Source: a virus
Virus record (IMG/VR): IMGVR_UViG_3300009068_004979
Reading direction: 5' to 3' (one strand)
Length of the DNA: 64,000 nt
The notes beneath the pieces were generated by a model, which had not been told where the DNA came from, searched no databases, and saw nothing but the letters and a program-made list of their open reading frames with translations. Of the stretch, positions 14,745 through 54,754 are shown in pieces (positions within the stretch are counted from its first letter, which is position 1; each line of letters starts with the position of its first letter). A program made the translations under genes and the position numbers.

Positions 14745-16161
14745 AAAGTTTTATGCGTTTATCCATATGGGATTGGCCATACTTGAGATTATCTGCAATG
14801 TCTACTATTATAAGCTTATCTTTATCCTTATGCAAGCGAAGACCTCTGCCGATTGACTGTACAATTTTTATCTTAGCTTTTCCACCGCCTGCAAATATAA
14901 TATAATGTAAATTTTTGATATTAATACCTGTAGAAAATATCTTTGAAATTGCTACAACAACAACATCATCACGCTCTTCCATTAATTTTTTAACTTTTTC
15001 TCTCTCATCTATTTCTACTTCACCTCTAATAAAATAAACATGCTTATTAGGGCATGTTGTTTTTACTGCGTTGTATATATTTTCCCCATGTTCAATATAA
15101 TCGATAAGAATAAGAGCATTTTTGTTTAAACCGCAGGATAATTTAGCTAAAAAATTATTTCTAAATGTATTAGATATTAGAAAGGATTGTTCAGCTCTGT
15201 AGCGATCTGTTGCGGACACATCGTGTATTGCATCTCTAAATGGGTCTCGGTTGTATGATATTCTTACAATCTGGACACTCACATTGCTAACATAATTTTC
15301 TAATCTGAGTTCATAGCTACTTTTTTCGTAAATTATCGGGCCAATTTTTCCAATAATATTCCATTGGTCAAGAGGGCCCTCAGGCATGGTGCCTGTGAAT
15401 CCAAACCTTACTGGTGTTTTTATCTTTTTAAACAGTTTATTGATTTCATTTCCACGACGAATCTTATGAACCTCGTCAACAACTACAACATCAACATTTT
15501 CAATCCACGTTAAATCACTGTTCTTACTTTGTAATATTCCGAGATTAGCCACAATTACATTAGTAGAATTGATTGTACCATTATCAATTGAATGTGATCC
15601 GGTCCATCTGCAAACAGAGAACGGGACCTTATATGAAGAGAAATCGTTAAACGTTTGTTCTACTAGACCGAGATCTGGAACTATAATGATACATTTAAAT
15701 TTGTTGTTTGCAGCCCAGATATTAGAAAGCACAGAAGCCATGGTAAGTGTCTTGCCACCAGCAGTCGCTAAAACAACAGTTCCGCGGCCTCTGTTCAAAC
15801 ATGTGCGCGTTATTTCTTCTTGGTAGTCTCTAAGCTGTAAAGATAGCGGGTATGGATCAAGCTTAAAATTTGGTAGGTCAAGCCACCTTGTTGGTGCAGG
15901 TGTACACTCGTGCTTAAATTCGTCTCCAAATTTTATCTCACCTGTATATTGCCTGTTGATGAGGTATTTTTGTATTTCAAAAAATAAGCACGGTTCAAAT
16001 TTTCCGGTAGGTGTTATTGCATATGTGCGCTGCGGTATGAAGCGACCATACTTGCGCATAAAAGATGCAGCTTCATTCTTAACAGAGAAATGCTCGCGAA
16101 TTTCATCTAAGAAATCGCAGGTTAGTTGTGCTTGGTTTTTTTCAAATTTTATCTCTATCAT
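14695..16161 (-). CDS. uvsW: SF2 helicase UvsW
   Basis: LRDYQ, ATAGGKT, DEVH, GFTGT, FSTGINI, QSIGRGLR. Confidence 0.93.
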   Translation of the reverse strand: MIEIKFEKNQAQLTCDFLDEIREHFSVKNEAASFMRKYGRFIPQRTYAITPTGKFEPCLFFEIQKYLINRQYTGEIKFGDEFKHECTPAPTRWLDLPNFKLDPYPLSLQLRDYQEEITRTCLNRGRGTVVLATAGGKTLTMASVLSNIWAANNKFKCIIIVPDLGLVEQTFNDFSSYKVPFSVCRWTGSHSIDNGTINSTNVIVANLGILQSKNSDLTWIENVDVVVVDEVHKIRRGNEINKLFKKIKTPVRFGFTGTMPEGPLDQWNIIGKIGPIIYEKSSYELRLENYVSNVSVQIVRISYNRDPFRDAIHDVSATDRYRAEQSFLISNTFRNNFLAKLSCGLNKNALILIDYIEHGENIYNAVKTTCPNKHVYFIRGEVEIDEREKVKKLMEERDDVVVVAISKIFSTGINIKNLHYIIFAGGGKAKIKIVQSIGRGLRLHKDKDKLIIVDIADNLKYGQSHMDKRIKLYEKENINFAIKEIKES

Positions 16162-16550
16162 GTTGTTTCGAGCTTCATGATGTCAATGAGATTTTTGATA
16201 TCATATGAAGTGCTGTTTAATGTTCTTTCAGATTTTTCTAATAACTCAATTACCAGTTCAATTTCTTTAATCCTTGCATCAGCTTCTGTTAATTCATTAC
16301 TATTTTCTGCTGTTCTTTCGGCAACAGGTGCTGTTAACTTAACAGGGCTCATTTCGTTAATCTTATCAACAATGGCTCTTTTGAGTTTATCTCTATTCTT
16401 TTTAAGAGTAATGAGTTCTAGCTTATGACGTATGCATCTGCCTGCCCATTTGTGCTTGATACCCGGTAATCTTTGCTGATAATCCTTAAGGTTAAGTTCA
16501 TCAAACTTAAGATCATTTTCTAGTTCAGTTATGTAATCTTCTAGGCGCAT
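16158..16550 (-). CDS. uvsY: Recombination mediator UvsY (start corrected to ATG 16550)
   Basis: MRLEDYITELENDLKFDE...KHKW resembles the T4 UvsY N-terminus; promoter 8 nt upstream. Confidence 0.85.
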   Translation of the reverse strand: MRLEDYITELENDLKFDELNLKDYQQRLPGIKHKWAGRCIRHKLELITLKKNRDKLKRAIVDKINEMSPVKLTAPVAERTAENSNELTEADARIKEIELVIELLEKSERTLNSTSYDIKNLIDIMKLETT

Positions 16551-16558
16551 TAACTTAA

Positions 16559-16586
16559 ATAATAATATAAAGATACATAAAATCAA
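16559..16586 (-). promoter_or_regulatory. Sigma70-like promoter for the uvsY-uvsW-55-47-46 operon, overlapping a divergent TAAATA (16556-16561, +)
   Basis: TTGATT-N16-TATTAT, 8 nt from ATG 16550. Confidence 0.6.
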
Positions 16587-16844
16587 ATGAAACTATTTGA
16601 ATCAGCCTTTAATAACGCTTTAAATGAAATGGCAAATACTGCCGGTGGGGCAGGTGGTGTGTTTACTGCATATGCGGGCACAGTAAATGCAGGAGAATTT
16701 GGCAATCAATTTCCTTCGCAAAATGATAAAGCGTATGCACCTGGTGATGCAAGAGTTCCAAAAATCTTGGGAGCCAAATTTTCTAAGAAAAAGAAAAAAT
16801 TAAAGTATCCTATTCAGCGACGTACATTTCTTCCTGGCAATTGA
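16587..16844 (+). CDS. Small protein carrying a copy of the major capsid protein N-arm
   Basis: Residues 38-61 FGNQFPSQNDKAYAPGDARVPKIL vs gp23 92-115 FGNQFPSQNDNAYAAGDARLPKIL, then RRTF in both. Confidence 0.85.
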   Translation: MKLFESAFNNALNEMANTAGGAGGVFTAYAGTVNAGEFGNQFPSQNDKAYAPGDARVPKILGAKFSKKKKKLKYPIQRRTFLPGN

Positions 16845-16873: not shown

Positions 16874-17287
16874 ATGGATTTAGGTCATTGGCAGCTTCAT
16901 GAAGGCATAGTTATAGATGAAAATACTTTTGGTTTTATCTATGAAATAGTTAACACAATAACAAATAAGAAGTATATAGGTAAAAAACAGTGTAAGTCTA
17001 AGTTGAAGCGAAAGCCATTGAAGGGCAAAGTAAACAAAAGAATAGAGATAAAAGACTCGGATTGGAGAGAATATACAAGCTCCTCAAATGAGTTAAATGC
17101 TGATATACAGAAATACGGTAAAGACAAATTCATTTTCAATGTTATACGTATATGTGGTAGCAAGTGGGAGCTTGCGTATTATGAAATTAAAGAGCAGATA
17201 GAGCGCAGCGTCTTGTTGAGTGACGGCTATTATAACGGCATAATAAATGTAAGGATTGGCAGGCCTCCAAAGAAATTGCTTGAATAA
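16874..17287 (+). CDS. GIY-YIG endonuclease (endonuclease II/Seg-like)
   Basis: FGFIYEI...KKYIGKK, SDWREYTSSS, YYE, YYNGII. Confidence 0.85.
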   Translation: MDLGHWQLHEGIVIDENTFGFIYEIVNTITNKKYIGKKQCKSKLKRKPLKGKVNKRIEIKDSDWREYTSSSNELNADIQKYGKDKFIFNVIRICGSKWELAYYEIKEQIERSVLLSDGYYNGIINVRIGRPPKKLLE

Positions 17288-17895: not shown

Positions 17896-18330
17896 ATGAA
17901 CTTCAATGATAAAGTTAATAGTATATATAAGGTATTTTTAGAACAAGAACCTCCAAAGGATGCAACAGAACCGCAGGTTCCAGATGCATCAGCTATACCT
18001 GAGCCAGCAGCTGCTGCACAACCAAAAACCCAGGTGCCACCTGAAGGTTACGTGGATATAGTGAGACTTCTTGCCAAAGCACTTGTGATGGATATTCCTG
18101 CAGGGACGATAGATGATTTATTTACATTGCCTGTTACTGCAGAAAATGCAGAAGAAGTCCGTGAAGGTCTAGAGAAAGCTATTAAACAAAATGAAATGTA
18201 TGCAGATAATCCAGAAAAATTAGATAATGTACATTTTAAAAAGTTTGTTTCTTCTATTAATGAGAATAACTTCATGCAGCGCTACAAGAATATTCTTGCT
18301 ATTATGAAGAAATATAGCAATTCAATTTAA
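17896..18330 (+). CDS. Hypothetical late protein, putative internal head protein
   Basis: TAAATA 7 nt upstream; N-terminus ending VFLEQE followed by a P/A linker. Confidence 0.6.
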   Translation: MNFNDKVNSIYKVFLEQEPPKDATEPQVPDASAIPEPAAAAQPKTQVPPEGYVDIVRLLAKALVMDIPAGTIDDLFTLPVTAENAEEVREGLEKAIKQNEMYADNPEKLDNVHFKKFVSSINENNFMQRYKNILAIMKKYSNSI

Positions 18331-18333
18331 ACC

Positions 18334-19779
18334 ATGAACGAGGGTAAGAAATATAGAAGCCTGGATGAAGTGTACTTGCAGGAATCTTTCGCAAAAAAAG
18401 TACCCGAACTTCCGAGAACACGTGTGGTTTTTATAAAAGAAAATGCAGACGTTGTAATACAAAAAAATCCACCAAATGGTCAGGTTAGAGAGTTTGATGT
18501 GAGTGATGAAGTTGCTAATCAAATTATTAGTAGCATAGCGAGTCAGCAGAAACGCTCTACAGAGGAGGGGGAGCTATCTGTAAGCGAAATAATAGATAAA
18601 GTATTAATTAATGATGGATGGAAAGCAGGTAATAAGGAATATACAGCATTATTAGATAGAGTTATTAAAATTTTTACTTCAAGTAATTTTATAGCTGAAA
18701 AATTTAATAATTTAATTAAAATTCAAAAAGATAAAAATAATAAATTTCGTACTGCACTATTGGCAGCTCCAGGGGAAGTTTTTGCATACAAATCTCTAAT
18801 ATCTGATGCATTTATGCAATTGTTTGAGGGTGAAGATGGCTACAAAGTCGCCGAGAGCTTGTGGCCAATAACTTTTAAAGCTAGAGTAAATGTTGGTCCA
18901 GGAGAGCTTGCAATTACACTTTTATCAGATTCTATCAAAGGTAAAACTGGTGATTTATTATTTAACGGATTTGGTGAAGTGGAGGTAAAAGGATCAGATG
19001 CACGCATGGGCGGAGGTGGCTATTGTCATAATAATACACCTACAGAACTTAACAATATAATATCAAGTGAACAAGGAAAATTATCAGAAAAAACATTACT
19101 AAGAATAAAAGCTGAAACCTATAAGAGAATTGAAAATTTTATAAAAGAAAGAGAGCAGCTTAAGGGTAGAGTTGTAGTTCCAAAAGAAAAACAAATAGAA
19201 TATTTATCTAGTATAAAAGATTCTCTTGATAATGCGGATAGCTTAACTCAATTATTACAAGCTGTTGATAAATCTGGTCTTCCTAAGAATATTGTAAAGT
19301 CTTTAAGAACATCAGTTGAAGAATATACAAAATATAAAAAAGGCGAAGTCAAGGGTCAGTTTGCACCTGCATTTACAACTTTTTTCTCTATGGCTAGTGA
19401 ATTAACCGATGAACAGCTCGTAAGAGGTATTGTAGCATCTAGAAGTTATGACAGTTCAAACATCTTTAACGATTTAACAGCTGCAATAAACTCTTTGTAT
19501 TTAAAATACAAAGAAGAATTAATAGCAAACGGTACATTTACAAGAAATTTAACACGGCTTGTTGGCGCTATGCATACAGCAATTTATCATCAAGTTCAAA
19601 AATTTAGGGGGATATTATTTTTAAACGATAGTACAAAAAATATGTTATATTATGAATTTTCTAATAATTTAGAAAAAGATATAGATTCTCTTTATACTCT
19701 TTATAAAAAAACAAATGCAGTAATAAATTTAAGTATTGATAGCAAATTTCAATCTGCCGGCATTTTACTTTCAATATGA
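18334..19779 (+). CDS. Putative PD-(D/E)xK nuclease-domain protein
   Basis: VGPGELAITLL...TGDLLF...EVEVKG arrangement (E...D...ExK); leader ending YLQE. Confidence 0.55.
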   Translation: MNEGKKYRSLDEVYLQESFAKKVPELPRTRVVFIKENADVVIQKNPPNGQVREFDVSDEVANQIISSIASQQKRSTEEGELSVSEIIDKVLINDGWKAGNKEYTALLDRVIKIFTSSNFIAEKFNNLIKIQKDKNNKFRTALLAAPGEVFAYKSLISDAFMQLFEGEDGYKVAESLWPITFKARVNVGPGELAITLLSDSIKGKTGDLLFNGFGEVEVKGSDARMGGGGYCHNNTPTELNNIISSEQGKLSEKTLLRIKAETYKRIENFIKEREQLKGRVVVPKEKQIEYLSSIKDSLDNADSLTQLLQAVDKSGLPKNIVKSLRTSVEEYTKYKKGEVKGQFAPAFTTFFSMASELTDEQLVRGIVASRSYDSSNIFNDLTAAINSLYLKYKEELIANGTFTRNLTRLVGAMHTAIYHQVQKFRGILFLNDSTKNMLYYEFSNNLEKDIDSLYTLYKKTNAVINLSIDSKFQSAGILLSI

Positions 19780-20990
19780 ACTCCTTTAAATATTTTTATT
19801 TCTTAACTGAAGGCGGTGCTGCCGGGCATATGCTTCATCCTTTTGATTTACCACAGGTTACAAATGGTAATGCTTTGATCAAAGTTTATAAGCAGACAGA
19901 GGCAAGCGTAAGGGAAAAACCAGCAGCAGTAAAAATTGATGGCTTGAATGCATCAATTAAGCTAATCACTAATGCTGATGGCAGTAAGGAATTTGCTCTT
20001 GATCGTGGCTCAAACAAGCAAGAAGATATACAGGGTGTGACGCTAGCCACGTTATCAAACCGGTTTCCACAAGGTCATGGAATGCTCGCAGTAGGTACTG
20101 ATGTTCTGTCAATTTTTAATAAAGCTCTTCCGACAATAACAAATGAACTAAAACGGTTAAAAATGCTTGATAATAGTAGCATACTTTTTAATATGGAATA
20201 TGTTAAGGGTAATACAAACGTTATAGGTTATAAGGATAATTTCTTAGCTATTCACGGTCTAAATGAGATTTATCAGGTGACTAGTCCAATTAAGAAATCA
20301 GTAAGCAGGGCATCAAGAGAAATTTCTTATGATAAGAAGGCGTTATCAGATTTAATAGAAAAGGTAAATAAAATAGCAAGGAGTTTTGACTTTAATGTTG
20401 TGGGTGAAATAGCGGCTACATTAACTCATAATATAAGCTTTGATTCAGAGTTAAATTCAGAATTTGCAGTAAAATATAATGCTGAACATGTTGAAGTGAA
20501 GACATTGCGTACCTGGTTACAAAAAGCAAAAAATCCGAAAGGTGTAACAATCGCTCTTTCTAGTGGAAAGCGTGTAGATGCGCTTTCAAAGCAAATTTAT
20601 TTAGCTGTGCTAGAGGGTCAAGAGCTCGACTCTTTGATAAAAGATAGAGATCAAACAGGTATAAAGAATGCCATTGATGGCGCGGTAATCTACCATGCAA
20701 CACGTTTAATGGGTCAGAAGCTTCTCTCCTCCATGAAATCGCCTCTTGGTGATATAGAGACGCAAGAAGGTATTGTTATACGTGATCCTAAGATTTCTTC
20801 TGTTCCTTTTAAAATCACCGGTGAGTTTATAGTGCGCGGATTACAGAGCAAATTTAAAAAGAATGAACAAGAGGAAGGACCATTAACGAGAAGTACGCTG
20901 AATAACGTTAATTATATTAATACACCGCCTTATGAATATGAGGGCAGCAATTTGCGCTCAACACCGGGATTCAATATAAACCCAACATGA
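19776..20990 (+). CDS. Ligase-like covalent nucleotidyltransferase fold protein (DUF6267-like)
   Basis: EGGAAGHMLHPFD, KIDG (motif I), FNMEYV, EGIVIR (motif IV), FKITG (motif V). Confidence 0.6.
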   Translation: MNSFKYFYFLTEGGAAGHMLHPFDLPQVTNGNALIKVYKQTEASVREKPAAVKIDGLNASIKLITNADGSKEFALDRGSNKQEDIQGVTLATLSNRFPQGHGMLAVGTDVLSIFNKALPTITNELKRLKMLDNSSILFNMEYVKGNTNVIGYKDNFLAIHGLNEIYQVTSPIKKSVSRASREISYDKKALSDLIEKVNKIARSFDFNVVGEIAATLTHNISFDSELNSEFAVKYNAEHVEVKTLRTWLQKAKNPKGVTIALSSGKRVDALSKQIYLAVLEGQELDSLIKDRDQTGIKNAIDGAVIYHATRLMGQKLLSSMKSPLGDIETQEGIVIRDPKISSVPFKITGEFIVRGLQSKFKKNEQEEGPLTRSTLNNVNYINTPPYEYEGSNLRSTPGFNINPT

Positions 20991-21535
20991 AGTTTAAGTT
21001 TGACATTCTAGTAGAACAGCTTCTTGGTGAGAAGAAAGAACGCATAGCTCTCTTACCGGGTGGGTTTAAGCCACCACATAAGGGCCATTTTAAAGCATTA
21101 AGTTATATCTTGCAAGATGCAGATCGTGGCATTGTTTATATTGGAAATAAGGAAAGGGATGGTGTAACGGCTGAACAGGCAAAGCAAATTTGGGAAATAT
21201 ATAAAAAGTATTTACCAAAGCCTATTGATATAGAAATTACAAAAATTACACCAGTAAAATCGGTCTATGATTTTGTCGATAGTAATCTAGATAAACCTGT
21301 TATTGTTGGAGCTTCAGGTGATGAGGATTTAAAGCGTTTTGAATATTTTAAGAAACATGCAGAAAAATATCCGTTAGTTACTGTTGTCAATATACCACCT
21401 CAGTATAATAGAATTTCAGGTACTGAAGCAAGAAAGAAAATTATAGGAAAAGAATCAGACGCCGTAGAGTATTTTGTACCTGAAATATCTGATCAAGATT
21501 TACTTAAGATAAAGAATATACTTCTTATTTCTTAG
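20987..21535 (+). CDS. HxGH cytidylyltransferase/NMNAT-like nucleotidyltransferase
   Basis: PGGFKPPHKGH, ISGTEAR. Confidence 0.85.
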   Translation: MKFKFDILVEQLLGEKKERIALLPGGFKPPHKGHFKALSYILQDADRGIVYIGNKERDGVTAEQAKQIWEIYKKYLPKPIDIEITKITPVKSVYDFVDSNLDKPVIVGASGDEDLKRFEYFKKHAEKYPLVTVVNIPPQYNRISGTEARKKIIGKESDAVEYFVPEISDQDLLKIKNILLIS

Positions 21536-22295
21536 TTTCTAGTACCTTAATTGCTTCTAGAAGAACCTTTTCCACAATTTCACGAGATTCACTCTTGAGT
21601 GATTTTTTTAATGCATCTAATAGGGAGCCACCGCCTGAATTAATAGCTGAAAATAAATCGTTCTCCGTTTCTTCTTCTACATTTTCAAGGCTATGATTAA
21701 GCACTTCTCTGTGTTTTTCATAGTCCTTATAGCCAAAGATAGAATTCAAATCGCCTTGCGCTCTTGCAATTTTATCAAGAACCCATGGTTCAACATTTTC
21801 TTCATCACCGAGCAAATCGTGCAACATTGCTGCAATTTTAACAATACGAAATAAGTTTTGCTTTGTCATGTAGCCGCCGTGTTCTTCACTGGAATGCTCG
21901 GATCCGTGCATCATATCGCATCCTTCACAATCTTCATTACTCTTTAGCGGAAGCTTGCCAGAGCCACCCATGGATTTATCAATGGCTCCGCCTCTTGCTT
22001 TTTCATACCCGGAAAGTTTACCATCTTTGTTTAAATCAGATTTCTTTACGTCTATTTCATCTTGATTTGCATGCTGATTAGCTTTGCATTCTGCACATCC
22101 ATTGCATTTGCAACCTTCTGCAGCATACTTACATGTACATTCTTCATTTTCACAATTGCACTTCTTTGTGACTGCAACAAATTTATCAGGTGTATACCCT
22201 GCAGCAGGGCTATTTTCACCCTGAGGACCTAGATTCATTTCATTGATTCTAGCGTTATAAAGCTCATTCAATAGATAGAAATCCTTATTAAACAT
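21525..22295 (-). CDS. Putative internal head protein with Cys-rich segment and EF-hand-like loop
   Basis: CNCENEECTCKYAAEGCKCNGCAECK; DLNKDGKLSGYE; EPWVLDKI; upstream TAAATA. Confidence 0.6.
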   Translation of the reverse strand: MFNKDFYLLNELYNARINEMNLGPQGENSPAAGYTPDKFVAVTKKCNCENEECTCKYAAEGCKCNGCAECKANQHANQDEIDVKKSDLNKDGKLSGYEKARGGAIDKSMGGSGKLPLKSNEDCEGCDMMHGSEHSSEEHGGYMTKQNLFRIVKIAAMLHDLLGDEENVEPWVLDKIARAQGDLNSIFGYKDYEKHREVLNHSLENVEEETENDLFSAINSGGGSLLDALKKSLKSESREIVEKVLLEAIKVLETKK

Positions 22296-22338
22296 ATGTT
22301 ATATTAATATTTAGTCTTATGGCACATAAATATTTTAT

Positions 22339-22626
22339 ATGTTGTTTGAAAATGCATTTTATTTGGCACTTGATAATGAACTAGTTGAAGAGAGAAGCAC
22401 AGGAAAATGCACAAAAGTTACCGGACAAATGTCATCATCTCGATCTGATAAAAAATACATGCGTTGTGCGCGTGTTGGTGGTAAGCTCAAGCGTGTACAT
22501 TATGGGGATCCAAATCTAAGAATAAAGAAATCCAACCCAAAGCGTAGAAAAAGCTTCAGAGCTCGACACAAGTGTTCTTCTGCAAAACCCGGTACTGCAA
22601 AATATTTTAGTTGTAAAAACTGGTAA
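22339..22626 (+). CDS. Small basic conserved phage protein
   Basis: VHYGDPNLRIKKSNPKRRKSFRARHKC...YFSCKNW; TAAATA 6 nt upstream; acidic leader ending LVEE. Confidence 0.7.
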   Translation: MLFENAFYLALDNELVEERSTGKCTKVTGQMSSSRSDKKYMRCARVGGKLKRVHYGDPNLRIKKSNPKRRKSFRARHKCSSAKPGTAKYFSCKNW

Positions 22627-22640
22627 CCTTAAATAATAAT

Positions 22641-23054
22641 ATGACATCTTTTAAGCAATTCTATAAAAGACCTGTACTCGGTGTTGGTGAAGTAATAGAT
22701 ATTGCTGGTATAGGGTCTGTAAAAGCCAAGGTTGATAGCGGTAATGAGGCTTTTAATGTTTTGCATGGTACCAATATAAAGGATGAAAATAACGAAGTAA
22801 GCTTTACAACAATTAATAATAAGAACATTAAAAAGCCTAAGCACGATACTATTACAATTCATATAGGCAGCGGTGTGAAGGAAGACAGGCCTGTGGTTTT
22901 ATTTGATATAAAGATAGATGGTAAAGAGTATAAAAATATACCTTTTAGTATAGCTGATAGAACGGAGAACGATGAGCCTGTTCTAGTAGGTGAGCCGTTT
23001 GTGAGACAGCTAAATGCTCTTATTGATGTGAAGAGAGATAATACAGAAGATTAA
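22641..23054 (+). CDS. Retropepsin-like aspartic protease (RimK-associated type)
   Basis: KAKVDSGN catalytic motif, EDRPVV, ADR...VLVG; leader MTSFKQF; TAAATA 5 nt upstream. Confidence 0.8.
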   Translation: MTSFKQFYKRPVLGVGEVIDIAGIGSVKAKVDSGNEAFNVLHGTNIKDENNEVSFTTINNKNIKKPKHDTITIHIGSGVKEDRPVVLFDIKIDGKEYKNIPFSIADRTENDEPVLVGEPFVRQLNALIDVKRDNTED

Positions 23055-24887: not shown

Positions 24888-25670
24888 ATGAATTACGAAA
24901 GTACAAAGATAATTGAATTAGGTTCTTGCGCATTTAGACAATGGAGAGCTGATAGTCATTGCAAATTTATACATGGTTACAGACTAGTAGCTAAGTTCTG
25001 GTTTAAATGTAATCATTTAGATGATAGAAACTGGGTTGTTGATTTTGGTGGTCTAAAAGAACTCAAACAAGTACTCGAAAAACAATTTGACCATACATTA
25101 TGCGTTTCAGCTGACGATCCTCAGATAGAGCTTTTGAAGCAATTACATACTGTCGGAGCATGTGATTTGCGCATTATGCCGAAGGGAGTTGGTATTGAGA
25201 GAACAGCGGAATGGTGCTTTGATGTTGCTGATGGACATATTAGAGGTCTTACAAGCAATAGATGCTGGGTTGATAGAGTTGAGGTATGGGAACATGAAAA
25301 GAATTCTGCAATTGTGAGCTATGAGCATACATGTATTGCAAATCATAATTCTTACGCTGCAGATAGACATATTGCAGAGCAATATGAATTACCATTTAAT
25401 GGAAATGAAACAATATCAACAACCATACAGCCAAATTTACACATGTCAACAACAGTAGCTGCTGGTATTAATATCGATAATGCTAATATAACACCAGTTG
25501 ATGCCCCGACAGATCCAAATACTACTCGTCCAGCTCCTGTGGGTAATCAGAAATCTGTAATTACACAGAGCAATACTAAGCCCGATCACGCTGCTCCAGC
25601 TCGAGTAGGCAAAGCTCCTGTTACACAGGGCTGGTCTAATCCATTTGCTGGAACAAGCTGGGGCGCATAA
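24888..25670 (+). CDS. queD: 6-carboxytetrahydropterin synthase QueD with long C-terminal extension
   Basis: HCKFIHGY, WVVDFGGLK, FDH, VEVWEHEKNSA; about 110-aa P/T/N-rich tail. Confidence 0.88.
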   Translation: MNYESTKIIELGSCAFRQWRADSHCKFIHGYRLVAKFWFKCNHLDDRNWVVDFGGLKELKQVLEKQFDHTLCVSADDPQIELLKQLHTVGACDLRIMPKGVGIERTAEWCFDVADGHIRGLTSNRCWVDRVEVWEHEKNSAIVSYEHTCIANHNSYAADRHIAEQYELPFNGNETISTTIQPNLHMSTTVAAGINIDNANITPVDAPTDPNTTRPAPVGNQKSVITQSNTKPDHAAPARVGKAPVTQGWSNPFAGTSWGA

Positions 25671-49144: not shown

Positions 49145-49603
49145 ATGATTCCCTTGCAAGGAAATGGTAAATACAGGCAAGGTGTATTTCGTCCCCAAAA
49201 TGCAGCAAAATACATTGGAAGAGAGCAGCCAGTGTACAGATCAGGCTGGGAATTAAAATTCTTTAGATGGTGTGACAATAATCCTAATGTAGTAGAATGG
49301 GCAAGTGAAGCCGTTGTTATACCGTACTTGAATCCTTTAGATGGTAAGTACCACCGTTATTATACTGATGGTATTGTAGCTATCAAAGAGGGAGACAAGG
49401 TGAACAAGTATATCATAGAGATCAAACCAAGTGAACAGCTGGCTATACCAGTTAAAGGCCGCAAAAGAATGAGTACCATGGTATATGAGAATAAAAGATA
49501 TGTACAAAATCAATCCAAGTGGCAAGCTGCTAAGAAATGGTGCGATCAACGCAACTTCAAATTTCTTATATTGACTGAAAAAGAATTAGGTATAAATAAA
49601 TGA
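49145..49603 (+). CDS. 4: Head completion nuclease gp4-like
   Basis: G.FRPQNAAKY.G, YRSGWE..F..WCD, WASE, HRYY.D, IEIKP, ILTE. Confidence 0.9.
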   Translation: MIPLQGNGKYRQGVFRPQNAAKYIGREQPVYRSGWELKFFRWCDNNPNVVEWASEAVVIPYLNPLDGKYHRYYTDGIVAIKEGDKVNKYIIEIKPSEQLAIPVKGRKRMSTMVYENKRYVQNQSKWQAAKKWCDQRNFKFLILTEKELGINK

Positions 49604-49626
49604 GCATTAAACCAATAAATAATAAT

Positions 49627-50298
49627 ATGGCACTACATCTGCTTGTAGAAACTCCCGCTCCAGAAGAGCAATTTGAATATATTTTAGAGGAGAAAAACCC
49701 TAAAGAACCTGCAAAACTTTTTATTCAAGGGCCATACATGATGTGCAATGAAGTTAACAAGAACCAGCGTGTTTATGTAAGAGAAGACATGGAGCGCGAA
49801 GTGAGACGCTATGTTAAAGAGATGATTGATACAAAGAGAGCCATGGGTGAGCTCAATCACCCTACATCAGCTGAAGTGAATCTCGAAAGAGCATGTCATT
49901 TAACTACCAATCTTCGCATGGAAGGTAATTTTGTCTATGGAAGATCACAAGTTCTCTCAACACCCATGGGACAAATTGTAAGATCTCTTATTAATGATGG
50001 TGTTAAAGTTGGCATGTCAAGCCGTGCTCTTGGCAAGCTAAATGAAGAGTCTGGTGGTGTTAACCGTGTAACTGACATGAGATTAGTAGCTGTTGACTGT
50101 GTTGCTGATCCATCGTGCCCCAAAGCATTTGTAAATGGTATCTTGGAAAGCAAACAATTTGTTGTAGCTGCAGATGGTACACTAGAAGAATTCTTTGAAA
50201 AATTTGAAAATAGTCTTAAAAATTTACCCAGAAAGGAAGTTGAATCGTTTTTAAAGGAGCAAATTCTTGGTTTCTTTAAAATGTTAAAAACCAGTTAA
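49627..50298 (+). CDS. 21: Prohead protease gp21
   Basis: NKNQRVY, GELNHP, TPMG, GMSSRALG, DCVADPS; TAAATA 5 nt upstream of ATG 49627. Confidence 0.95.
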   Translation: MALHLLVETPAPEEQFEYILEEKNPKEPAKLFIQGPYMMCNEVNKNQRVYVREDMEREVRRYVKEMIDTKRAMGELNHPTSAEVNLERACHLTTNLRMEGNFVYGRSQVLSTPMGQIVRSLINDGVKVGMSSRALGKLNEESGGVNRVTDMRLVAVDCVADPSCPKAFVNGILESKQFVVAADGTLEEFFEKFENSLKNLPRKEVESFLKEQILGFFKMLKTS

Positions 50299-50327: not shown

Positions 50328-50639
50328 ATGCCATTGAAATCCGGAAGCTCACAGAAAGTGATCAGTCAGAATGTTAAGACTGAAATGGATAAATTCAAGA
50401 AGACCGGTAAAATCGGAACATCCAAGCCTGAATCCAAAGCTGCAGCACAAAAACAGGCTGTTGCCATTGCTCTTAAGAAAGCTGGCAAAAGCCAAGTTAG
50501 TGAGCAGCAAAATATAATTTCCTTTTTAAAAGCGGTTTCTCAGAAAAATTATTCTGAAGCAAATAAATATTTACAGGAAGTGGTTAATTCAAAGCTCAAA
50601 GCTAGAATAGAAGCTGCTTCCAAAAACAAAATTTTTTAA
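50328..50639 (+). CDS. Prohead core protein (gp67-like C-terminal half) with a basic N-terminal module
   Basis: Between gp21 and gp22; MPLKSGSSQKVIS...KQAVAIAL then VSEQ...IISFLKAV...A..YL..V...KL..RI. Confidence 0.55.
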   Translation: MPLKSGSSQKVISQNVKTEMDKFKKTGKIGTSKPESKAAAQKQAVAIALKKAGKSQVSEQQNIISFLKAVSQKNYSEANKYLQEVVNSKLKARIEAASKNKIF

Positions 50640-51562: not shown

Positions 51563-51568
51563 TAAATA
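51563..51568 (+). promoter_or_regulatory. Late promoter of the major capsid gene
   Basis: TAAATA 35 nt upstream of ATG. Confidence 0.55.
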
Positions 51569-51603
51569 AAGGTCGACATTAGTAATAGGAAATTTATACT
51601 ATT

Positions 51604-53142
51604 ATGGCAAAACAAATCCGTCCTACACAGGCATACATTGATGAGTCTCGCGCTCGTGTGTTGCTTGAGAAGTGGGGTCCAGTATTGGACTACTCTTCCA
51701 ACAACGTAAGAGCAATCGAAGACGATCACACACGTCTCAATACCGCCATTCTCTTGGAAAACCAGGAAAAGTGGTGCTTTGAGGCTAACAACGCTTCCGG
51801 TGGTACTGCAGGCGGCCTACCTTATGGTCAGGCTGGCTCAGGCGTATTCGGTGGTGAAACAGGTGGCGCCGGTTCATTCGGCAACCAGTTCCCATCACAG
51901 AATGATAACGCATACGCCGCAGGCGATGCTCGTCTTCCGAAGATTCTCATCCCAATGATCAGACGTACGTTCCCTGAGTTGATCACTAACGAAATCGTTG
52001 GTGTTCAGCCCATGAGCGGCCCTGTCGGACTTGCTTTCGCACTTCGTTACAAGTATGAGCCTACCAACTTAGGTTATCAGTCTGGTTCGTTGGACGCAAG
52101 TTCATCATCCCAGTACTACAACAACCTAAGAGGTCTCTCTGCTAACCCTGAATTGGGTTACCAGTACCTCGACACAAGATTCACTGGTGCTTCGTCATCA
52201 GCCTTGTCCGGGGCCACAGGTTTCTTCCAGATGCTCGATCAAGATCGTGGCGTTGCTCAGTTGCTCAGCCAGTTTGAGTTAACAAGCAATATCCCACAGA
52301 TTGTGGTTAGCTTTGAGAAGACTGCAGTTGAAGCTGGTACACGTAGACTCGCAGCTCGTTGGTCAGTTGAACTCGAGCAGGACTTGAAGAACATGAACGG
52401 TATTGATATCGACACTGAGCTCACAAACGCTATGTCTTATGAGCTACAGGCCGAAATCGATCGTGAAATGATCATCAGAATGATTCAGACAGCACTCAAC
52501 GCCGGTTACGGCCAAGGGTTCTCAGTCTGGTCACCTGCTTCAGCAGACGGCCGTTGGCTCGTCGAGCGCAATCGTGACTTCTACCAGAGACTCATCGTTG
52601 AGGCTAACCGTATCGCTGTACGTAACCGCCGTGGTTCAGCTAATTTCGTTGTTGCAACACCTCGTGTGTGCGCAATCCTCGAAATGCTACCTGAATTCCA
52701 GTGGGCACCAGTACAGGGTAATGTTAATACTCAGCCAGTCGGAGTTGCAAAAGTGGGTTCCCTCGCAGGTCGCTTCAACGTGTATCGTGATACACGCACA
52801 GAGGCACAGTTCGAAGCAAATGCTGGCGGTAATTTCGGTGGCTCGGGTCCATTCCCAGCCAACGGTGTTACAGTCGCAAATACTCGTACAACACGTCTTG
52901 AATATGCTCTCCTTGGCTACAAGGGTCCGGAATTCTACGACACTGGTATCATCTATTGTCCGTACATTCCAGTCATGGTGCAGAGAACAATTGGTCCAAA
53001 TGACTTCGCTCCACGCGTTGGTCTATTGACCCGCTATGGTGTTGTTGACAACATCTTTGGCGCTAATCTCTACTACCACGTCATCATCCTTCAGGGTCTT
53101 GGCACAGCATTCCTACCTGGTCAGCAAGCCGTTTACTTCTAA
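51604..53142 (+). CDS. 23: Major capsid protein gp23
   Basis: LLEKW.PVL, LLENQ, GVQPMSGP.GL.FALR, ELEQDLK, EIDRE, YCPYIP, TRYG. Confidence 0.97.
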   Translation: MAKQIRPTQAYIDESRARVLLEKWGPVLDYSSNNVRAIEDDHTRLNTAILLENQEKWCFEANNASGGTAGGLPYGQAGSGVFGGETGGAGSFGNQFPSQNDNAYAAGDARLPKILIPMIRRTFPELITNEIVGVQPMSGPVGLAFALRYKYEPTNLGYQSGSLDASSSSQYYNNLRGLSANPELGYQYLDTRFTGASSSALSGATGFFQMLDQDRGVAQLLSQFELTSNIPQIVVSFEKTAVEAGTRRLAARWSVELEQDLKNMNGIDIDTELTNAMSYELQAEIDREMIIRMIQTALNAGYGQGFSVWSPASADGRWLVERNRDFYQRLIVEANRIAVRNRRGSANFVVATPRVCAILEMLPEFQWAPVQGNVNTQPVGVAKVGSLAGRFNVYRDTRTEAQFEANAGGNFGGSGPFPANGVTVANTRTTRLEYALLGYKGPEFYDTGIIYCPYIPVMVQRTIGPNDFAPRVGLLTRYGVVDNIFGANLYYHVIILQGLGTAFLPGQQAVYF

Positions 53143-53839: not shown

Positions 53840-54754
53840 TTACTGCCGCGGTGTTTTAACAAAATACTTGTACTGATCCACTAGCACTTTATCAAGTAAT
53901 TCTGCTTTGTTTGCTCTGGTAGGATTAATATCAATGCCACCTCTGCGCACATACAAGCAAGACACTACAAGTTCTTCTGGTTCAAATCTATCATAGATTC
54001 TTTTGTAGATGGTCTCGCAAATCTCTTCATGAAAATGACACTCGTCCCTGAATGATACAACATACTTTAACACCGATGTTACATTGAACAGATGCTTGCC
54101 TTTGTAGTGAATGTACACATCACCCCAATCTGGCTGTGATGTTACTCTGCAATTGCTCTTCAATAAAGCAGAATGAAATCTCTGAGTCTTAGATTCAGTT
54201 AATAATTCTGCGCTCAACAAATTAGGATTCTCCTTGTAATCTGCAGTCTCAATAGTTGTAACATCAATAAGATTCTCCAGAGTAGGATAAGAGCCATTAC
54301 TAAAGATAGGCGGATAGTAAACACTATCATCAACTGCAGCGGTCAAACGAACATAGACCCGAACTTCTGTTTCTAATAGGTCGGATAGATCATTACGAAT
54401 TTTTGCTTCAAGCTGTTGCAGCACGTTAATTATTGTGCCATCAAACACTTCCATGTTAAAGGAATTCATGTACAGTTTGATGGACTTGGATTCCACAATG
54501 TATTTGTTATTAGCAGGATACACAATCTTTGCCACAGCTGCAATGGGCATGCCATATTCTGTTAAGCATGAAACTTCATATGCATTCCAAATATCATAAC
54601 CGGCAAAGGGAGGTGCATCATCACTGATATTCAAGTGTTTTCTGTTGTTAGCCCGGGGCTCTCTAACGAGCAGAGATGGATCATAGGTACACTTGTATCC
54701 TGTTATTTTGCCCAGATGCTTTGATATGTTACTGTTATCTAATTCCGTGTTCAT
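53840..54754 (-). CDS. queF: NADPH-dependent preQ0 reductase QueF (two-domain type)
   Basis: DIWNAYEVS, VESKSIKLY, LKSNCRVTSQPDWG, FHEEICE, RRGGIDINP. Confidence 0.95.
   Translation of the reverse strand: MNTELDNSNISKHLGKITGYKCTYDPSLLVREPRANNRKHLNISDDAPPFAGYDIWNAYEVSCLTEYGMPIAAVAKIVYPANNKYIVESKSIKLYMNSFNMEVFDGTIINVLQQLEAKIRNDLSDLLETEVRVYVRLTAAVDDSVYYPPIFSNGSYPTLENLIDVTTIETADYKENPNLLSAELLTESKTQRFHSALLKSNCRVTSQPDWGDVYIHYKGKHLFNVTSVLKYVVSFRDECHFHEEICETIYKRIYDRFEPEELVVSCLYVRRGGIDINPTRANKAELLDKVLVDQYKYFVKTPRQ

Follow-up and report, generated by a model that had tools for sequence, protein, structure and literature searches.

A small gp61.1-like gene that copies the N-terminal arm of its own major capsid protein in divergent T4-like phages

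Why should a T4-like phage encode one segment of its major capsid protein twice, once within the capsid gene and once as a free-standing open reading frame (ORF) of 85 amino acids? The question is raised by positions 16587..16844 of a 64,000-nucleotide stretch of viral DNA, IMG/VR record IMGVR_UViG_3300009068_004979 (hereafter the window), where an initial annotation, made from the letters alone, described a mini-protein resembling the mature N-arm of gp23. The phage is a very divergent member of the T4-like group, its closest gp23 among 50,697 sequenced phages being found in cyanophages at ~31-32% identity. We find that the mini-protein is encoded by a real, conserved and selected phage gene and that its copied part corresponds to a hypervariable stretch of gp23 and tracks the cognate capsid. 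By profile comparison, it appears to be a distant counterpart of T4 gp61.1 and probably belongs to the same family.

Anatomy and family of the mini-gene

BLASTP aligns residues 14-81 of the mini-protein with residues 60-123 of its own gp23 (E=8e-15). The match is confined to that segment and the HK97-fold body of the capsid protein is absent from the mini-protein, which has no Pfam Gp23 match. The relevant features of the window are:

16587..16844, + strand: mini-gene (85 amino acids plus stop), gp61.1-like capsid-arm mimic; the ORF is present
16587..16628, + strand: leader MKLFESAFNNALNE, residues 1-14, amphipathic helix ending L-N-E (helix 2-15 in the AlphaFold2 model)
16629..16769, + strand: capsid-arm copy, residues 15-61 (MANTAGG...FGNQFPSQNDKAYAPGDARVPKIL), homologous to gp23 61-115 (BLASTP, covariation)
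16770..16808, + strand: Lys-rich insert, residues 62-74 (GAKFSKKKKKLKY), not in gp23 (alignments)
16809..16841, + strand: C-terminal PIQRRTFLPGN, counterpart of gp23 PMIRRTFPEL at the arm/body junction; R78 and R79 invariant in the family
51604..53142, + strand: major capsid protein gp23, 512 amino acids (Pfam Gp23 5e-87, phrog_138)
51784..51972, + strand: gp23 residues 61-123, presumed mature N-terminus, N-fist and N-arm to RRTF, the template of the mimic (alignments)
49600..50298, + strand: gp21-family prohead maturation protease (phrog_207, E=1.9e-59)

The Lys-rich insert, the PIQRRTF/PMIRRTF match and a leader ending in LNE that resembles a capsid-targeting sequence (CTS) are thus all present as the initial annotation described them. 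Helix 2-15 is the sole confident part of the AlphaFold2 model, which shows no fold beyond the leader.

Homologous ORFs are abundant in related phages, as the initial proposal implied. A word-based search returned at least 26 close homologues of 66-124 amino acids, and a profile search of 1.84 billion cluster representatives (clusters at 50% identity) returned at least 395 clusters at E<=1e-3, nearly all of 60-100 amino acids. A longer DNA-pattern search for relatives mostly returned gp23 itself, and tblastn with the mini-protein against the 50,697 phage records gave no match. The family has no Pfam or PHROG name, and the mini-protein itself has no Pfam match and no PHROG match at E<=0.01. Ratios of non-synonymous to synonymous substitution rates (dN/dS) of 0.04 (window against L001), 0.11 and 0.18 in close orthologue pairs reveal purifying selection. 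Every IMG/VR contig of the clade that reaches the locus carries one mini-gene and one gp23, including three genomes rated complete (G014, G015 and G036). Two further contigs, G012 and G016, contain gp23 without the mini-gene and without the GIY-YIG gene that neighbours it elsewhere (see below), and probably stop short of the locus.

Across the family the layout is constant: a leader, (D/N/M)N(V/T)AGG followed by a Gly-rich stretch ending YAPGDARxPKILG, a Lys/Arg run, and (I/V)QRR. Of 149 short members, 144 have a leader that closes with hydrophobic-x-Glu, and leader lengths peak at 10, 13 and 14 residues; after the presumed cut the proteins carry on average a net charge of +8.7, and their longest K/R run has a median length of 5. 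In the 10-residue CTS of T4 internal protein (IP) IPIII, MKTYQEFIAE, residues 4 and 7 target the protein to the prohead core while residues 8 and 10 direct cleavage by gp21 (PMC9026906). Leaders of the family such as MKTFKEYVMQE and MITFNQFCSE carry aromatics at positions 4 and 7, with Glu at 10 or 11, like the T4 CTS, and both they and MKLFESAFNNALNE of the window fit its pattern. The leader is therefore presumed to be a CTS with a gp21-type cleavage site after E14. All gp23 of the clade likewise have hydrophobic-x-Glu immediately before the arm; the gp23 of the window is presumed to be cut after C58-F59-E60, to start with ANNASGG..., and a cut there would give the mini-protein and gp23 similar new N-termini.

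The arm-copy module is not always free. In ~15% of the relatives it is fused at the N-terminus of a longer protein, and in others it is C-terminal; fusion to extra domains is what would be expected of a targeting or anchoring module. The partners include DUF5661 (two clusters), a shared ~90-amino-acid domain (three) and a possible ParB-like domain (one), and two of the fusion proteins (P0072 and P0037) sit on contigs of 1-2 kb. A C-terminal module preceded by a hydrophobic-x-E of its own was observed in P0056, P0063, P0090, P0104 and the long forms of Straboviridae (examined in L302, L303, L306 and L307). A GNAT-like domain lies upstream of the module in P0056 and a conserved domain of ~100 amino acids in Moon, Miro, IME-CF2 and V07. 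If such fusions are cut at their hydrophobic-x-E, two products would be freed.

Covariation with the cognate capsid

The copied segment is the part of gp23 that changes fastest. Among 14 gp23 proteins, arm residues 59-103 have a mean column identity of 0.21 versus ~0.9 across most of the body. Two more gp23 stretches are hypervariable, residues 151-215 (column identity 0.35) and 401-430 (0.25), and are probably surface-exposed insertions.

The mini-protein follows this variation, as the initial annotation had proposed in calling the two a co-evolving pair. In 18 pairs, the identity between a mini-protein and its cognate gp23 is 53.0% versus 41.2% for non-cognate combinations, a value reached in 0 of 200,000 permutations; when each of 11 lineages is represented by a single pair, the signal persists (z=5.4, observed value reached in 1 of 200,000 permutations). 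In a maximum-likelihood tree of the shared segment, mini-proteins and capsids are interleaved, and the mini-protein is the sister of its cognate capsid segment in G015 (support 100/99) and G017 (98/92). The approximately unbiased (AU) test rejects a single clade of mini-proteins (difference in log-likelihood 71, p=3.3e-5), and with it an independent evolution of mini-protein and capsid arm. The signal stems from the deep lineages; within the core clade both genes retain FGNQFPSQND..YA.GDAR. Lineage-specific motifs common to the two proteins are:

G015: mini-protein GGSLGTFQTSDW..NP.GTPG; gp23 GGSLGTFQTSNW..NP.GTPG
G019: mini-protein FNPPGTISSGDGYA; gp23 FNPPGKITAGDDYA
G017: mini-protein NVAGGTGSVFSNGNVN; gp23 NVAGGTGSVFSNGSVN

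Is the match maintained by selection on the peptide or by copying of DNA? In the core, residues 38-61 of the mini-protein and 92-115 of gp23 are identical at 21 of 24 positions and use the same codon at only 4 of the 21, exactly as first reported; over the whole aligned arm in the window, codons are shared at 5 of 30 identical residues versus 10.2 expected from codon usage. Taking all cognate pairs together, the codon is the same at 114 of 335 identical residues (34%), compared with 119 expected from codon usage and 34% in non-cognate pairs, whereas orthologues share more (50% between capsids, 46% between mini-proteins). Codon sharing is thus at chance, and most pairs bear no sign of recent DNA exchange although their peptides remain similar. 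In G019, mini-protein and capsid have 7 lineage-specific residues in common, but only 1 codon. On the other side, codons are shared in excess in G015 (13 versus 8.7 expected) and G017 (15 versus 10.5), with 14-nucleotide identical runs, which suggests an old DNA exchange between mini-gene and gp23 in these two lineages. We thus conclude, from the codon comparisons, that the match is maintained by selection, with occasional old exchange possible in some lineages. Selection at the peptide level, as initially claimed, is borne out by chance-level codon sharing, dN/dS of 0.04-0.18 and covariation; the accompanying dismissal of recent DNA copying may not extend to DNA exchange in G015 and G017.

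Gene 61.1 of T4 and the setting of the mini-gene

When T4 is searched with its own gp23 arm, the second match is gene 61.1 (NC_000866 18966-19130), a hypothetical protein of 54 amino acids (phrog_1823; a long form of 156 amino acids is phrog_2086, and neither PHROG has an assigned function). T4 gp61.1 matches residues 57-93 of T4 gp23, cleavage site included, at E=1e-9, and reads MKTFKEFIKE, a CTS-like leader, then DMVAGDSGG..TSGAV..GP and PKKKK. In hhalign, the profile of nine Straboviridae gp61.1 modules matches the profile of the window family with 93% probability (E=3e-7, 37 columns), and T4 gp61.1 alone matches that family with 70% probability. Cross-comparisons of T4 gp61.1 with the gp23 arm of the window, and of the mini-protein with the N-terminal 125 residues of T4 gp23, gave no match. 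T4 gp61.1 and the mini-protein have, in the same order, a leader with hydrophobic-x-E, (D/N)(M/N)VAG(G/D), a copy of the cognate N-fist, GP/P..LG and a Lys-rich tail. The central part of the mini-protein is unrelated to T4 gp61.1 because each copies a different capsid arm. Unlike T4 gp61.1, the mini-protein is longer and runs on through YAPGDAR..PKIL and QRR; and unlike gene 61.1, which is near the primase gene 61, it is encoded between uvsY and a GIY-YIG gene in the window and in 17 relatives.

Gp61.1 was found in 1,432 phage records, and its gene lies at the primase gene or two genes upstream of it in T4, in other Straboviridae and in cyanophage S-SM1. In many Straboviridae, the module forms the C-terminal third of a protein of ~150 amino acids encoded just upstream of the primase. 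The cognate excess in Straboviridae is small (0.568 versus 0.542, p ~0.03) because the arm is conserved there. S-SM1 is likely a third case of the arm-copy design: a gene of 182 amino acids two genes upstream of its primase, annotated 'major head protein', begins with a copy of the phage's own arm (..DATG..AG[Y/F]DPVL) and continues into a Lys-rich run (E=0.004). No such duplicate of the arm was found in cyanophage P-SSM2. The initial statement that no such pair had been described has to be amended, given that T4 gene 61.1 is catalogued and that a few of its GenBank relatives are labelled 'gp23-like' or 'major capsid protein'. In the literature on gp61.1 and on capsid decoys or mimics, no functional study was found.

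Other T4 proteins resemble the mini-protein in part. T4 IPI, IPII, IPIII and Alt also have a short amphipathic leader with aromatics and an (L/I)-x-E end, the IPs have a small basic mature part, and several genes of one genome share the leader; however, mature IPs do not resemble gp23, as judged by reading of the sequences, and their packaging and cleavage are proven, whereas those of the mini-protein are proposed. The mini-protein is homologous to the segment of its own gp23 that is equivalent to the T4 N-arm/N-fist (residues 66-105), a stretch bounded by the presumed cleavage site and the RR motif, but unlike that arm it is free-standing, has a short leader in place of a propeptide of 60 residues and has gained a Lys-rich insert. 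T4 gp24 is, like the mini-protein, the product of a second gene derived from gene 23; gp24 has the complete capsid fold, the mini-protein the arm alone. Finally, the last ~10 residues of the mini-protein overlap the start of the region equivalent to the T4 Gol peptide (gp23 93-122, the activator of Lit); unlike that peptide, the mini-protein stops at RRTFLPGN and lacks most of the conserved Gol core of 20-29 residues (PELITNEIVGVQPM in the gp23 of the window).

The position of the mini-gene beside uvsY, noted in the initial annotation, is the same throughout the relatives: the order uvsY (divergent), mini-gene, GIY-YIG protein of 137 amino acids and protein of 187 amino acids was found in 17 of the 17 examined. 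The neighbouring features are:

16158..16550, - strand: uvsY, divergent upstream neighbour (phrog_231 and Pfam UvsY; same in 17/17 relatives)
16554..16572, + strand: AT-rich conserved box cTTAAATAATAATATAAAG upstream of the mini-gene; relatives carry NATAAATA there
16874..17287, + strand: GIY-YIG (SegE-like domain) protein, 137 amino acids, downstream neighbour (Pfam PF19835 1.2e-27)

The GIY-YIG neighbour is 45-80% identical across the 17 relatives and in some of them its start overlaps the stop of the mini-gene; it behaves like a core gene rather than a mobile homing endonuclease. In size it resembles T4 endonuclease II. An exact NATAAATA lies within ~45 nucleotides of the mini-gene ATG in 7 of 14 relatives, so that the box is suggestive, and only suggestive, of a possible T4-type late promoter. 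The same sequence occurs 8-24 nucleotides before the ATG of ~10 genes of the window, portal gene included, where a Shine-Dalgarno sequence is not evident:

NATAAATA sites: 4242, 22326, 23742, 35267, 45363, 46229, 49592, 53293 and 62608 (+ strand); 29362 (- strand)

If these are T4-type late promoters, their proximity to the ATG implies very short or absent 5' leaders; alternatively, NATAAATA near ATGs may be a translation signal. No enrichment of TATAAATA was found in the 64-kb window.

The leader of the mini-protein is not unique in its genome. Leaders of its type also head proteins of 404 and 256 amino acids and a cytidylyltransferase-like (CTP_transf_like) protein of 182 amino acids, and ORFs with CTS-like leaders form a cluster at 17896-23054:

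17896: 144 amino acids, Pro/Glu-rich
19776: 404 amino acids
20987: 182 amino acids, CTP_transf_like
21525, - strand: 256 amino acids
22339..22626, + strand: second small basic protein, 95 amino acids, very basic, leader MLFENAFYLALDNE... sharing 9 of 13 residues with that of the mini-protein
22641: 137 amino acids, weak Zn_protease match

The leader of the 95-amino-acid protein is kept in its G004 orthologue, and the protein has a weak match to phrog_220, 'minor head protein and DNA pilot'. The products of the leader-sharing genes of the window may be packaged in the head; in T4, IPI-III and Alt are marked by a shared leader in like manner.

The window also contains a portal gene, a gp4-like head closure gene and a scaffold-like coiled-coil gene immediately upstream of gp23. 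A GGTCGAC(A) box lies ~25-35 nucleotides upstream of the gp23 start in nearly all relatives (L010, L120-L124 and others; 51565-51580 in the window), directly after the GC-rich hairpin that ends the scaffold gene, and AGGTCGA occurs once in the 64 kb; the box may act in RNA processing or in translation, or belong to a clade-specific promoter. Between protease and scaffold, a Lys/Ala-rich ORF of 103 amino acids (50328-50639) begins with MPLKSGSS..ISQN, which matches phrog_2423, a family of unknown function. Elsewhere, the window has a 6-pyruvoyl-tetrahydropterin synthase (QueD-like) gene (24888-25670, Pfam PTPS 2e-16), and the ORF of 304 amino acids that follows gp23 (53840-54754, - strand) has an ESKS.K motif that we take to be QueF-like; together they hint at 7-deazaguanine modification of the DNA.

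Possible roles of a free capsid arm

What, then, could a free copy of the capsid arm do? The initial annotation listed four candidate roles: occupying vacant N-arm sites, tethering DNA, regulating assembly and acting as a decoy. In unexpanded T4 heads, residues 66-105 of gp23* are disordered, face inward and probably contact the scaffold, and mutants affecting head length map there; in expanded heads, the same residues form the N-arm and the N-fist (66-91), which makes inter-capsomer contacts and is part of the Soc site (PMC9546572). We propose that the mini-protein is a basic peptide targeted to the prohead and processed by the gp21-type protease, an arm copy using the capsid arm's own contacts, and we give this proposal about an even chance of being right. 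Disordered on its own, the mini-protein would have the build of a T4 internal head protein that carries a copy of the capsid arm. Its amphipathic leader (residues 1-14) would bring it into the assembling prohead, where the gp21-type protease would cleave it after L12-N13-E14, leaving a basic peptide of 71 residues whose new N-terminus, MANTAGG..., would resemble that of mature gp23. The arm copy would take the N-fist/N-arm contacts of gp23, either with the scaffolding core or with neighbouring arms in the prohead, and after expansion it might occupy capsomer sites, while the poly-Lys tract would bind DNA. Under this proposal, the mini-protein must fit the partners of the fast-evolving gp23 arm, and its sequence would therefore follow the cognate capsid.

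Several observations weigh against the proposal, in addition to the codon excess in G015 and G017. Tracking is incomplete, the mini-proteins of G011, G020 and G041 matching their cognate gp23 poorly. The leader pattern is short and permissive, and a regular expression for it also picked up uvsY and a helicase. The arm varies but the gp23 body, to which the mini-protein might dock, hardly changes, so that docking on the body alone does not account for the tracking; the partner that drives it is more likely to be the arms themselves (a homotypic contact), the scaffold or an external factor. In T4, the gp61.1 protein is missing from a time-resolved proteome (PMC9697503), TATAAATA was not found within the 170 nucleotides upstream of 61.1, and 61.1 adjoins adfA (61.2), sp, tifA and dmd, a proposed anti-toxin/counter-defence island (PMC9391042). 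A complex prediction with two arm-less gp23 and the mature mini-protein, run without controls, scored 0.00 and speaks neither for nor against binding.

The location of 61.1 would suit a counter-defence decoy, the most credible of the alternatives although we consider it unlikely: the free arm copy would bind an immune sensor of the N-terminal region or the cleavage site of new capsid protein. In a variant, it would soak up immunity that senses the protease, blocking abortive infection in the cytoplasm or after injection. A hypervariable stretch of gp23 is what an arms-race target would be, and the remaining genes of the T4 island have been called 'attractive candidates' (PMC9391042). The 61.1 RNA is 'early' (PMC9697503). 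This RNA class is shared by the true internal proteins IPI-III, 'early RNA, late protein' in that dataset, and so counts for the internal-protein proposal as well. Hosts are known to sense both gp23 (Gol/Lit, PMC3014915) and the activity of the prohead protease (CBASS, PMC12991175). Moreover, CTS-bearing internal proteins of T4 are injected anti-defence factors (PMC9026906), so that the decoy overlaps with the explanation we favour. However, no sensor is known for the arm region, and the Gol core (T4 93-122) is mostly absent from the mini-protein. In the clade of the window, the mini-gene lies between uvsY and a conserved GIY-YIG gene rather than in a defence island, and it belongs to the fixed single-copy core, unlike anti-defence genes, which tend to be patchy. 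Nor would a decoy require a poly-Lys tract and a cleavable leader.

We regard as somewhat less probable still that the cleaved peptide is a shell component supplied in trans, which would fill empty N-fist/N-arm sites at the portal or in gp23 pentons, cementing the shell or regulating its expansion with the poly-Lys tract toward the DNA. Such sites may exist: the N-fists of the five portal-facing subunits of T4 are disordered, their partner capsomer being missing (PMC7136217), and the inter-capsomer contacts of the N-fist and its part in the Soc site (PMC9546572) would suit a cement. Each complete relative (G014, G015 and G036) has a single Gp23-family gene and thus no gp24 vertex paralogue; its pentons are presumably made of gp23 or of an unrecognised protein. 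The mini-protein also includes the RR motif of the arm/body junction. Yet T4 has gp24 and keeps gp61.1, whose version lacks the RR end, and the bulky C-terminal fusions of some lineages fit poorly with threading through a shell.

Could the resemblance instead be an evolutionary by-product that serves no function, left by a partial duplication of the 5' part of gene 23 and renewed from time to time by ectopic gene conversion? T4-like phages recombine readily, and the codon excess, the 14-nucleotide runs and the sister relationship of mini-protein and capsid segments in G015 and G017 are what conversion would leave behind. Elsewhere the pattern is at odds with it, and we judge this explanation very improbable: although 53% of the residues are kept, cognate pairs share codons at chance (34%) and less often than orthologues do (46-50%); G019 shares its 7 lineage-specific residues with 1 codon in common; dN/dS is well under 1; and the design is found again in Straboviridae, and probably in Kyanoviridae, with arms that do not align to that of the window. 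Least likely of all is a role as protease regulator, in which the mini-protein, as an abundant pseudo-substrate, would present the capsid cleavage site to the gp21-type protease and so set its timing or switch it on, for although this site and its prime-side residues are reproduced in the mini-protein and the activation of gp21 is an open question (PMC9026906), ~45 conserved residues extend past the site, far beyond what a protease site needs, and the poly-Lys tract and QRR are left unexplained.

Four elements are new here: a gp61.1-type family in a distant uncultured clade, at another locus and with a longer module; quantitative evidence that the copy changes along with the cognate arm although synonymous sites are randomised; the fusion of the module to other domains; and the presence, in one genome, of several genes that share the leader. 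It is tempting to speculate that phages of the whole T4 superfamily devote a small gene to a free copy of the exposed, fast-evolving N-fist/arm of their capsid protein. Selection would match the copy to the cognate capsid, and the peptide would either assemble homotypically with capsid arms, as a head component not seen before that joins shell and DNA through poly-Lys, or be a decoy for immunity that senses capsid arms or cleavage sites, a generalisation that we advance as a tentative possibility. T4 head assembly is among the best-studied of pathways, and yet we found no functional study of the conserved mini-gene that copies the maturation site and the arm of the capsid protein, although it occurs in T4 itself, in over 1,400 of its sequenced relatives and in a large clade of uncultured phages; the window adds a case in which the design is retained with an entirely different capsid arm. 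With T4 gene 61.1 as the probable counterpart of the mini-gene, its role can be tested in T4. If the module serves targeting or anchoring, it might provide a natural tag to load cargo into T4-type capsids and, if the general view is true, the arm-copy genes would represent a new principle, the self-mimicry of a segment of a structural protein by a co-evolving mini-gene.

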